Virus record (IMG/VR): IMGVR_UViG_2660238269_000012
Origin: a virus
Lineage: Duplodnaviria; Heunggongvirae; Uroviricota; Caudoviricetes
Length of the DNA: 24,544 bases
Strand: one strand, 5' to 3'
Part shown: positions 4,051 to 6,449 of the stretch, piece by piece
Layout: the number at the start of each line of letters is the position of its first letter
How positions within the stretch are numbered: position 1 is the first letter of the stretch
Notes under the pieces: generated by a model
The model's database searches: none
What the model saw: the letters and a program-made list of their open reading frames with translations, nothing else
What the model was told of the DNA's origin: nothing
Program-made: the position numbers and the translations under genes

Positions 4051-4181
4051 GTGCACCGGCAACCATTCTTGATATGTGCTGTGGCAGCCGCATGTTCTGG
4101 TTCGATAAGTCTGACGAACGGGCGATATTCAGCGATATCAGAAAAGAAGGATACACATTACGCAATGGGAGACGCTTGATT
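4047..4181 (+). pseudogene. N-terminal fragment of a putative SAM-dependent methyltransferase, truncated by IS911
   Basis: Translates VSAPATILDMCCGSRMFWFDKSDERAIFSDIRKEGYTLRNGRRLI. ILDMCCGS resembles methyltransferase motif I. The frame stops at the TGA formed by the first three bases of the IS911 left inverted repeat. Confidence 0.3.
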
Positions 4182-4253
4182 TGAAGTGGTTTACTGAATT
4201 TGGCCACCTGAACAGAGGTGATATGCTCACCTCAGAACAACACAGGTGCCATA

Positions 4254-4556
4254 ATGAAAAAAAGAAATTTCAGCGCAGAGTTTAAACGCGAATCCGCTCA
4301 ACTGGTCGTTGACCAGAATTACACCGTGGCAGATGCAGCCAGCGCTATGGATGTCGGCCTTTCCACAATGACGCGATGGGTGAAACAATTACGTGATGAG
4401 CGGCAGGGAAAAACACCAAAAGCCTCCCCCATTACCCCGGAACAAATTGAAATCCGTGAGCTCAGGAAAAAGCTACAACGTATTGAAATGGAAAATGAAA
4501 TATTAAAAAAGGCTACCGCGCTCTTGATGTCAGACTCCCTGAACAGTTCTCGATAA
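4254..4556 (+). CDS. insN: IS911 OrfA (transposase N-terminal HTH protein)
   Basis: [29 protein letters not shown]...[19 protein letters not shown], 100 aa, recognised as IS911 OrfA. Confidence 0.9.
4505..4511 (+). promoter_or_regulatory. IS911 programmed -1 ribosomal frameshift slippery heptamer A_AAA_AAG
   Basis: aaaaaag at 4505..4511, in orfA frame as A AAA AAG, where the orfB frame overlaps; established IS911 mechanism for making OrfAB. Confidence 0.75.
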
Positions 4557-4582
4557 TCGGGAAACTCAGGGCGCGTTATCCT

Positions 4583-5401
4583 GTGGCCACTCTCTGCCAT
4601 GTGTTCGGGGTCCATCGCAGCAGCTACAAATACTGGAAAAACCGTCCTGAAAAGCCAGACGGCAGACGGGCTGTATTACGCAGCCAGGTACTTGAACTGC
4701 ATGGCATCAGCCACGGCTCTGCCGGAGCAAGAAGCATCGCCACAATGGCAACCCAGAGAGGCTACCAGATGGGGCGCTGGCTTGCTGGCAGACTCATGAA
4801 AGAGCTGGGGCTGGTCAGCTGTCAGCAGCCGACTTACCGGTATAAACGTGGTGGTCATGAACATGTTGCTATCCCTAACTACCTTGAACGGCAGTTCGCC
4901 GTGACCGAGCCAAATCAGGTGTGGTGCGGTGATGTGACCTATATCTGGACAGGTAAGCGCTGGGCGTACCTCGCCGTTGTTCTCGACCTGTTCGCAAGAA
5001 AACCAGTGGGCTGGGCCATGTCGTTCTCGCCGGACAGCAGGCTTACCATGAAAGCACTGGAAATGGCATGGGAAACCCGTGGTAAGCCCGTCGGGGTGAT
5101 GTTCCACAGCGATCAAGGCAGTCATTATACGAGCAGGCAGTTCCGGCAGTTACTGTGGAGATACCGGATCAGGCAGAGTATGAGTCGGCGTGGAAACTGC
5201 TGGGATAACAGCCCAATGGAGCGCTTCTTCAGGAGTCTGAAGAACGAATGGGTGCCGGCGACGGGCTATGTAAGCTTCAGCGATGCAGCTCACGCAATAA
5301 CGGACTATATCGTTGGATATTACAGCGCACTAAGACCGCACGAATATAATGGTGGGTTACCACCAAACGAATCGGAAAATCGATACTGGAAAAAACTCTA
5401 A
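4583..5401 (+). CDS. insO: IS911 OrfB (DDE catalytic domain; expressed as OrfAB fusion by -1 frameshift)
   Basis: The -1 frame relative to orfA encodes the DDE integrase-like domain ([34 protein letters not shown]). The frame opens upstream of the first ATG at 4583. Confidence 0.9.
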
Positions 5402-5431
5402 CTCGGTGGCCAGTTTTTGTTGACCACTTCA

Positions 5432-6449
5432 CTTCACAAAGACCGTTATCACAGGCGACGGTCCACTGGAACTGCGTACTCCGCGCGATCGTGACGGTAC
5501 CTTCGAACCACAACTGGTAAAGAAAAATCAGACCCGTATTACCGGGATGGATAACCAGATCCTCTCGTTGTATGCCAAAGGGATGACCACCCGTGAGATA
5601 GCTGCTGCGTTCAAAGAACTGTATGACGCAGATGTTTCACCGGCACTGATATCAAAGGTTACCGATGCCGTGATGGAGCAGGTTGTAGAATGGCAAAACC
5701 GACCACTGGATGCTGTTTACCCCATTGTTTATCTTGACTGTATCGTCCTGAAAGTTCGGCAGGACAGTCGCGTCATCAACAAATCGGTGTTCCTGGCACT
5801 GGGCATCAATATCGAAGGTCAGAAAGAACTGCTGGGTATGTGGCTGGCCGAAAATGAAGGGGCGAAGTTCTGGCTCAATGTGCTGACTGAACTGAAAAAC
5901 CGCGGTCTGAACGATATCCTCATCGCCTGTGTGGATGGCCTGAAAGGCTTCCCGGATGCCATCAACACAGTATATCCGAAGGCCCGCATCCAGTTATGCA
6001 TCGTGCATATGGTGCGCAACAGCCTGCGCTTCGTGTCATGGAAGGACTACAAAGCCGTCACTCGCGACCTGAAAGCGATTTATCAGGCTCCCACGGAAGA
6101 GGCAGGCCAGCAGGCACTGGAAGCGTTCGCTGCGGCCTGGGACTGTCGCTATCCTCAGATAAGCCGAAGCTGGCAGGCTAACTGGCCGAATCTTGCCACG
6201 TTCTTCGCTTATCCAACGGACATCCGCAAAGTGATCTATACGACGAATGCCATCGAGTCGCTAAACAGCGTGATCCGCCATGCGATCAAAAAGCGTAAAG
6301 TGTTCCCGACAGACGACTCGGTGAAAAAAGTGGTGTGGCTGGCAATCCAGGCGGCTTCACAGAAATGGACGATGCCACTGCGGGACTGGCGTATGGCAAT
6401 GAGCCGCTTTATTATCGAGTTCGGTGACCGCCTGGACGGCCACTTCTGA
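5432..6449 (+). pseudogene. IS256-family (Mutator-like) transposase, 5'-truncated at the IS911 right end
   Basis: Frame translates LELRTPRDRDGTFEPQLVKKNQTRITGMDNQILSLYAKGMTTREI... through DGLKGFPDAI and TTNAIESLNSVIR, typical of IS256-family transposases. The N-terminal roughly 100 aa are missing; the frame opens directly at the IS911 end. Confidence 0.8.

Follow-up and report, generated by a model that had tools for sequence, protein, structure and literature searches.

Deletions beside insertion sequences (ISs) have been followed in the Escherichia coli long-term evolution experiment, in which 14 of 83 IS events were accompanied by deletions, all of them involving IS150, a member of the IS3 family (PMC11708052). 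These deletions ranged from 14 bp to 49 kb, none was associated with a target-site duplication, and in all cases an insertion came first and an adjacent deletion second, which was often extended later; fusion of orfA and orfB raises the rate of adjacent deletion (PMC11708052). Also, IS3 generates deletions of varied length from either of its ends (PMC8860574). For IS1414, an element of the IS256 family, nesting of the enterotoxin gene astA within the element is a known property, and IS1414 copies inactivated by deletion with an intact astA have been described as common (PMC12585946). In this study, we analyzed a DNA stretch of 24,544 nucleotides from the virus record IMGVR_UViG_2660238269_000012 (Caudoviricetes), in the following called the window, which carries a Qin-type cryptic prophage between rspB and ydfJ. 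Within the window, a complete copy of the IS3-family element ISEc52 lies without target-site duplication between a truncated methyltransferase gene and a 5′-truncated IS1414, and about 3.9 kb of DNA is missing at this place.

The missing DNA was delimited by comparison with other loci (numbered L001 onwards). Collinearity with L001 (99.95%) ends at base 4181, which corresponds to nt 135 of the 357-nt methyltransferase gene, and homology to L001, L002, and L033 stops there and resumes in IS1414. The initial annotation had proposed to look at Qin-like relatives without the IS. In IS-free relatives with the same prophage variant (L033, L038, and others), a contiguous segment of 3,619 bp connects the methyltransferase breakpoint with the IS1414 target. 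The loss at the IS thus comprises 3,619 bp of prophage DNA and nt 1–266 of IS1414. The lost prophage segment contains the 3′ two-thirds of the methyltransferase gene, a DUF7167 pseudogene, small open reading frames (ORFs), a 437-aa ISNCY-type transposase-like gene, and ydfW; in several assemblies, the IS-free order is methyltransferase gene, small ORFs, the 437-aa ISNCY-type gene, and flxA. Because an IS without duplication sits between two truncated unrelated sequences, and a segment contiguous in collinear IS-free relatives is missing, an IS-associated deletion, by adjacent deletion or by recombination between IS copies as suggested initially, is supported. One hallmark of an adjacent deletion is present as well: the segment that collinear relatives contain is lost, and one border of the loss coincides exactly with the end of the intact IS.

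The triplets beside the IS are ATT (4179–4181) on the left and CTT (5432–5434) on the right, and these unequal flanks had been recognized correctly. There is no target-site duplication: the left flank belongs to the methyltransferase gene and the right flank to IS1414, and because both flanks are unrelated sequences, no realignment can yield one. Nor does the element routinely insert without duplication, since perfect 3-bp duplications were found at 5 of 7 sampled ISEc52 copies (ATT, GTT, TAT, CTT, and GGG), while the remaining two are located between truncated unrelated genes. The 3-bp duplication is the mark of a fresh insertion and not a property of the element itself. One of the sampled copies has the same left flank as the window (GATT directly before the IS) together with an ATT duplication.

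At the right junction, the comparison of att with ctt needs a correction: the triplets do differ, but CTT belongs to a repeated 5-bp IS tip and is not target DNA. Intact IS1414 reads ...GGTTTTTC/CACAAAG at this place (the slash marks the junction), with TTC where the window has CTT, and CTT is therefore not derived from IS1414. The extra CTTCA is a tandem copy of the last five bases of the IS (5427–5431); as its CA is common to the repeat and to IS1414, the IS1414 match can be read from 5435 and then shows 100% identity to nt 267–1315. Among the compared junctions, the two-copy form GACCA-CTTCA-CTTCA-CAAAG was found in seven loci (window, L005, L009, L010, L012, L013, and L018) and the one-copy form GACCA-CTTCA-CAAAG in three (L006, L008, and L014); alignments of the two forms show a 5-bp gap with otherwise near-identical flanks. 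In the one-copy form, the IS end is joined directly to IS1414 (IS end/CAAAGACC), a join that fits a simple insertion at CAA on the right side. We infer that the form with a single CTTCA is ancestral and that the 5-bp change was a gain, since random 3-bp filler together with the CA of IS1414 would mimic the IS tip only about once in 1000 cases. A linked single nucleotide polymorphism (SNP) at 13011, at which outgroups have the base of the single-CTTCA form, is not decisive because two changes are needed under either history. As an alternative origin of CTT, a carried-over 3-bp spacer of an IS circle junction was considered and rejected: CTT plus the CA of IS1414 exactly equals the IS tip, and a tandem duplication is simpler than a coincidence of this rarity. 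The repeat may have arisen by replication slippage or by an aborted end-processing reaction; that it records an abortive transposase reaction at this end is conceivable but doubtful.

The IS itself starts with TGAAGTGG at 4182, ends with CCACTTCA at 5431, and has a total length of 1250 bp, so that the span of 4179–5434 given initially is the element with 3 bp on either side. Its terminal inverted repeats are imperfect, with 32-nt arms of 75% complementarity and the ends 5′-TG ... CA-3′. The NCBIfam IS3 model NF033516 is covered by orfA at positions 1–85 and by orfB at positions 104–368 of 369, the latter with a score of 302.8 bits (cut-off 160), and the Pfam domains HTH_Tnp_1 and rve were found on the identical genes in L005. 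The element had been called IS911. This holds as far as a close relative is concerned, since the 3′ 913 bp and the 5′ 335 bp have 95.4% and 91.0% identity, respectively, to one copy annotated as IS911 (about 94% overall). Several complete E. coli genomes, however, carry 100% identical copies labeled "IS3-like element ISEc52" at NCBI, and judging from these identities ISEc52 is the better name. The IS is also identical to the copies in L005, L006, and L018, and there is no second copy within the window. In its 1250 bp, TG...CA ends, orfA/orfB arrangement, A6G slippery site, and coverage of the IS3 models, it agrees with IS911 and ISEc52, which are copy-out-paste-in elements; in contrast to ordinary ISEc52, the copy in the window lacks a duplication and has the extra 5-bp repeat of its right tip.

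Table 1. Positions of the features at and around ISEc52 in the window.
Feature	Position	Strand	Basis or remark
IS-free deletion junction, 10-bp microhomology CTCCGG(A/C)TAC	3801–3810		three-way comparison with L003
Methyltransferase 5′ fragment, 45 codons of a 118-codon class I S-adenosylmethionine (SAM)-dependent methyltransferase gene	4047–4181	+	translation, comparison
ISEc52, complete, IS3 family, near IS911	4182–5431	+	inverted repeat; 100% identical copies annotated as ISEc52
Left inverted repeat of ISEc52	from 4182
Right inverted repeat of ISEc52	to 5431
orfA of ISEc52	4254–4556		100 codons
A6G slippery motif of ISEc52 (-1 frameshift)	4505–4511
orfB reading frame of ISEc52	4583–5401
Extra CTTCA, tandem copy of the last five IS bases	5432–5436	+	junction comparison, 14 loci
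5′-truncated IS1414, IS256 family, nt 269–1315 of 1315	5437–6483	+	homology
astA (EAST1 enterotoxin), intact 38-codon ORF	5956–6072	+	translation MPSTQYIRRPASSYASCIWCATACASCHGRTTKPSLAT, then stop
IS1414 target site, remaining hairpin half	6484–6500		comparison with uninterrupted L001 and L016
flxA, first intact prophage gene right of the composite IS block	6511–6843	-	ORF list, collinear relatives

To the left of the IS, the stop codon TGA of the methyltransferase stub is formed by the first three bases of ISEc52. The intact gene (L001, 6648–7004; L002, 1960–2316) runs on beyond the breakpoint as ATCAGCC... in L001, and its 3′ part begins with ATTATCAGCC. The left junction is present in three NCBI assemblies (L017, L018, and L019), and L018 is 100% identical to the window over 10,184 bp. 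Assemblies with the window-type form are GCA_001188105.2, GCA_000225145.2, and GCA_002133445.1. Contigs in three further, independent assemblies (L020, L021, and L022; two from Logan and one from ENA, k = 141) end at ...GCTTGATTA. This end lies 1 bp past the exact insertion point of ISEc52, and the next base is that of the intact gene. A mosaic boundary between methyltransferase alleles was rejected as the cause of these contig ends, because the O157-type allele differs along its whole length, and so was the IS1 insertion in strain AH21, which lies elsewhere; in the complete genomes, neither a mosaic boundary nor another IS was found at the contig-end site. The 118-codon methyltransferase gene (L003, 4247–4603) stops at TAA, where the longer O157-type allele (L052, 603–1076) reads through. 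This longer allele comprises 474 nt and itself has an internal stop, and the methyltransferase gene may thus have been a decayed fragment already before it was cut at the IS.

A second form of the locus was found in L006 (GCA_000942915.1), which contains the identical 1250-bp IS and the same join of the IS to IS1414. Over 12.3 kb, L006 differs from the window by a 5-bp indel, one SNP, and otherwise mismatches in the unrelated left flank only. This left flank ends with ...GAGAGTTTCATC directly before the IS, 1 bp upstream of the ynfD start codon. The left breakpoint of L006 is located 8,849 bp further left than that of the window and 12,468 bp from the IS1414 target, and ynfC, speG, ynfB, ynfA, rspA, rspB, int, and xis are additionally lost, together with the rest of the left prophage arm. 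Since the window keeps DNA that is absent from L006, the L006 form is not ancestral to that of the window. A shared right junction combined with a variable left junction is the pattern that nested deletions anchored at one IS end would leave. At 8629–8641 of L006, the left IS end replaces the ynfD promoter region, and the ynfG side of the contig is likewise interrupted by phage genes.

The two breakpoints, the missing segment, the one right junction with two left junctions, and the separate loss of the dic region described below can be read directly from the compared sequences, whereas we infer the order of events and the involvement of a transposase. In the history which we favor, IS1414 would first have entered the hairpin loop that lies downstream of flxA, followed by insertion of ISEc52 into the 5′ part of IS1414, at CAA. 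One or more deletions would then have run leftwards from the exact left end of ISEc52, driven by the transposase in such a way that the left IS end attacked a new target on the same molecule. In the lineage of the window, the deletion would have taken nt 1–266 of IS1414 plus 3,619 bp and ended inside the methyltransferase gene; in the sister lineage, it would have covered a total of 12.5 kb and come to within 1 bp of ynfD on its upstream side. The tandem duplication of the 5-bp IS tip would have arisen later in the lineage of the window. To an insertion into IS1414 followed by transposase-driven adjacent deletion(s) from the left IS end we give an even chance. The locus resembles the IS150 cases of the long-term evolution experiment in that an intact IS without duplication is found, the deletion starts from one IS end, the other junction is kept, and stepwise extension occurs. 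It differs in that the earlier insertion was seen there in a time series, whereas the simple-insertion stage of the window is deduced, and in that another member of the family is involved.

Several points weigh against this history. The simple-insertion join GGTTTTTCCACAA/TGAAGTGG (IS1414 ...CCACAA/IS) was absent from 5,426 complete E. coli genomes, the JGI metagenomes, and IMG/VR. A looser pattern allowing the join within 20 bp gave eight chance matches in the GTDB species representatives, of which seven were in unrelated organisms, and the enterobacterial one, when read, was not an IS junction. These negatives are weak evidence because the complete genomes do not include the lineage at all: none of the left, right, IS1414–flxA, and ynfD junctions occurs in the 5,426 genomes, in which the single near-match (H41) is a different IS911/IS1414 join 35 bp away. 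IMG/VR and the GTDB representatives are likewise of little power because the real junction of the window is also absent there. Furthermore, the direction assumed for the 5-bp change depends solely on the improbability of obtaining a perfect tandem repeat from random filler. Finally, other routes lead to the same end: recombination of two directly oriented ISEc52 copies would give exactly the same structure, and ISEc52 could just as well have hit the methyltransferase gene first, with a later deletion that ran rightwards into IS1414.

In the two-copy route, ISEc52 would have copied itself from IS1414 in the same orientation to ATT in the methyltransferase gene or, in the sister lineage, to ATC upstream of ynfD, and the DNA between the copies would have been deleted together with one copy by host homologous recombination, leaving a hybrid IS with the left flank from one copy and the right flank from the other. 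We regard this route as possible but on the unlikely side. Both left flanks, ATT and ATC, look like triplets that ISEc52 ordinarily targets, as illustrated by the sampled copy at GATT, the element is present in multiple copies in many genomes (up to 25 places), and recombination between IS copies is a recognized cause of missing duplications (PMC11708052). Against it, no duplication-flanked ISEc52 was found at the methyltransferase, ynfD, or IS1414 site in the genomes and collections searched, an extra insertion is needed per deletion, and in the evolution experiment, IS3-family events without duplication were assigned to adjacent deletion by a copy already in place (PMC11708052). With the order reversed, ISEc52 would have entered the methyltransferase gene first, with an ATT duplication, a rightward deletion would have taken 3.6 kb and the start of IS1414, and the sister would then have lost 8.8 kb leftwards. 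The number of events is the same as in the preferred history, and ATT is a plausible target triplet. This order, however, needs deletions from both IS ends instead of one, its predicted intermediate, with ...CCACTTCA/ATTATCAGCC as the join of the IS end to the gene, gave no match in the JGI metagenomes and IMG/VR, and in other places IS911-type elements independently abut the 5′ region of IS1414, in agreement with IS1414 having been the primary target; we consider the reverse order improbable. A single step, in which the IS integrated into a deletion-born DNA break without staggered cleavage and never had a duplication, is the least credible of these histories and very improbable. Such a mechanism was proposed for IS5 and IS481 events without duplications, but the IS3-family cases were all multi-step (PMC11708052), and one right junction with two left junctions in near-identical backgrounds needs at least one later step. 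An assembly artefact as the origin of the junctions was rejected since they recur in independent assemblies. The routes predict different signatures: insertion into IS1414 followed by adjacent deletion would leave GGTTTTTCCACAATGAAGTGG only, the two-copy route GGTTTTTCCACAATGAAGTGG with CCACTTCAATTATCAGCCC or CCACTTCAATCATAAGCTCC in one genome, and the reverse order CCACTTCAATTATCAGCCC only; the left junction of an intact IS1414 at the site of the window is GGCCCGATGAGGGAGCCTGTACATAG.

According to a further initial suggestion, the immunity/replication region of Qin (dicA, dicC, and dicB) may have been removed by the IS event. The absence of these genes from the window is correct, since the dic region of L015 has no match there. 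Their loss, however, maps to an IS-free junction 370 bp left of the IS, at which an N-terminally truncated exonuclease gene (minus strand, left side) is fused to an internal part of a DUF977 gene (plus strand). Compared with L003 and L015, this junction explains the absence of the exonuclease N-terminus, ydfD, dicB, ydfA and neighbors, and dicA/dicC. It is shared by L001 and L002, both of which have no ISEc52 at 4182, and no gene for immunity or replication lies in the DNA lost at the IS, so that a removal by the IS is almost certainly wrong. The fusion is widespread: for its 88-aa exonuclease/DUF977 product, the public assembly collection lists 351 blocks, and in 9 of the 10 places shown the intact methyltransferase gene comes next. 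By these comparisons, the loss of the dic region is a separate and unrelated microhomology deletion that would be earlier than the IS-associated loss.

On the right side, the truncation of IS1414 removed nt 1–266, that is, the left inverted repeat, the leader, and about 65 codons, whereas the right inverted repeat (...CCTGAACAGGCTC to 6483) and the stop codon (6447–6449) are retained. The NCBIfam IS256 model NF033543 (Transposase_mut type) matches the remnant with 401.9 bits over positions 26–336 of 338. The 5′-truncated IS256-family transposase gene reported initially is thus present; the about 100 missing codons apply only when counting from the first ATG of the remnant, which gives an ORF of 300 aa compared to 402 aa in the intact transposase, while by homology about 65 are missing. 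IS1414 in the window is a dead remnant, immobile because its left inverted repeat is absent and only the right one is left. The right junction was found in nine further contigs (NCBI, ENA, and JGI), and a look-up of the 300-aa ORF yielded ten contigs from other assemblies, eight of which have the ISEc52–IS1414 junction. The intact astA gene is embedded out of frame in the transposase remnant; it lies downstream of ISEc52 and shares its orientation. The arrangement corresponds to the decayed IS1414 elements with astA described before, as the same element is inactivated with an intact astA; here, an IS3-family element marks the cause of the truncation.

The right end of IS1414 adjoins the remaining half of a hairpin that lies downstream of flxA (GTGGCCC-GATGA-GGGCCAC, with a T-run after it on the flxA strand). 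This hairpin is split by the IS1414 insertion and is apparently the flxA terminator. Several entries of IS1414 were observed at or near this hairpin, with about five to seven distinct positions or orientations within roughly 60 bp; the loci compared were the window, L002, L016, L032, and L043. In the window, IS1414 is in plus orientation with the flank CGATGAGG, in 1332KP it is at the same flank in minus orientation, and in LAU-OXA and MINF_8D it is in minus orientation 1 bp from the position in the window. HSP425 has IS1414 in plus orientation 22 bp away with the 8-bp duplication CTGTCACT, in NCTC9112 it is inside the 3′ end of flxA, and two more insertions have offsets of about 12 and 23 bp. 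From these positions, the hairpin region looks like a hot spot of IS1414 insertion.

The prophage shares with Qin of E. coli K-12 the site from rspB to ydfJ, the genes flxA, ydfV, relBE, hokD, rem, ydfU, ydfT, and cspB/F/I, and the lysis genes essD-ydfR-rrrQ-rzpQ. Unlike K-12 Qin, the variant in the window keeps int, xis, and tail genes, and it is without the dic region, lost by the microhomology deletion, and without the methyltransferase-to-ydfW segment, lost by the IS-associated deletion. Other internal deletions were noticed at about 17,640 and 18,430. A terminase large-subunit fragment adjoins the gene of minor tail protein L, the same content as in the window is spread over about 49 kb in other genomes, and the window lacks about 1.4 kb of the tail-tip/C40 peptidase region found in 1332KP.

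Independent parallels to the arrangement at ISEc52 were found in the same prophage and on a plasmid. The prophage of 1332KP (L032) shares 91% of the window, with 99.9% identity there. It contains the inverted IS1414, 3′-truncated to nt 1–1053, at the flank CGATGAGGGCCAC, and a different IS3-family element of about 1.3 kb with an annotated AL1L pseudoknot bridges this truncated IS1414 and the exonuclease gene, which is cut at a position equal to 3248 of the window (parallel region 3248–6483). LAU-OXA has the intact inverted IS1414 one base away and the whole segment from the methyltransferase gene to ydfW. On plasmid p510016_80 (L004, 3500–3600), the right end of an IS911 abuts IS1414 at TCCAGACC, 35 bp upstream of the junction in the window; this IS911 is split by IS30, has the same relative orientation as in the window, and adjoins an IS1414 that lacks its 5′ part. 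Blocks of IS30/IS1414/IS3 of a similar kind were seen on other replicons. Because of the parallels in 1332KP and p510016_80, insertion of an IS into an IS with loss of adjacent DNA is recurrent here. Entry of an IS3-family element into IS1414 with adjacent DNA loss was observed in at least three separate contexts, IS1414 occurs in both orientations at the same position of the flxA terminator, and several copies lie in or beside the hairpin. It is conceivable, though rather doubtful, that the route of decay is guided by target preference, with the flxA hairpin as a structure-specific target of IS1414 and IS1414 as a preferred landing pad for IS911-type elements. If this were true, nested IS-in-IS insertion with end-anchored deletion would be a recurrent and predictable way of erosion of Qin-type prophages.

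IS-associated erosion of this kind is an ordinary and already known phenomenon, and beyond careful annotation the result is of little import: the missing duplication marks a 3.9-kb IS-anchored deletion in an already crippled prophage. The locus nevertheless provides a natural example, from public assemblies, of a deletion that grew in steps of first 3.9 kb and then 12.5 kb in extent from a single IS end, as in laboratory evolution. In the sister lineage, the loss of int, xis, ynfC, speG, ynfB, ynfA, and rspAB locks the prophage remnant in place. Since astA survives in the immobilized IS1414 remnant, typing schemes which count astA still score the remnant.

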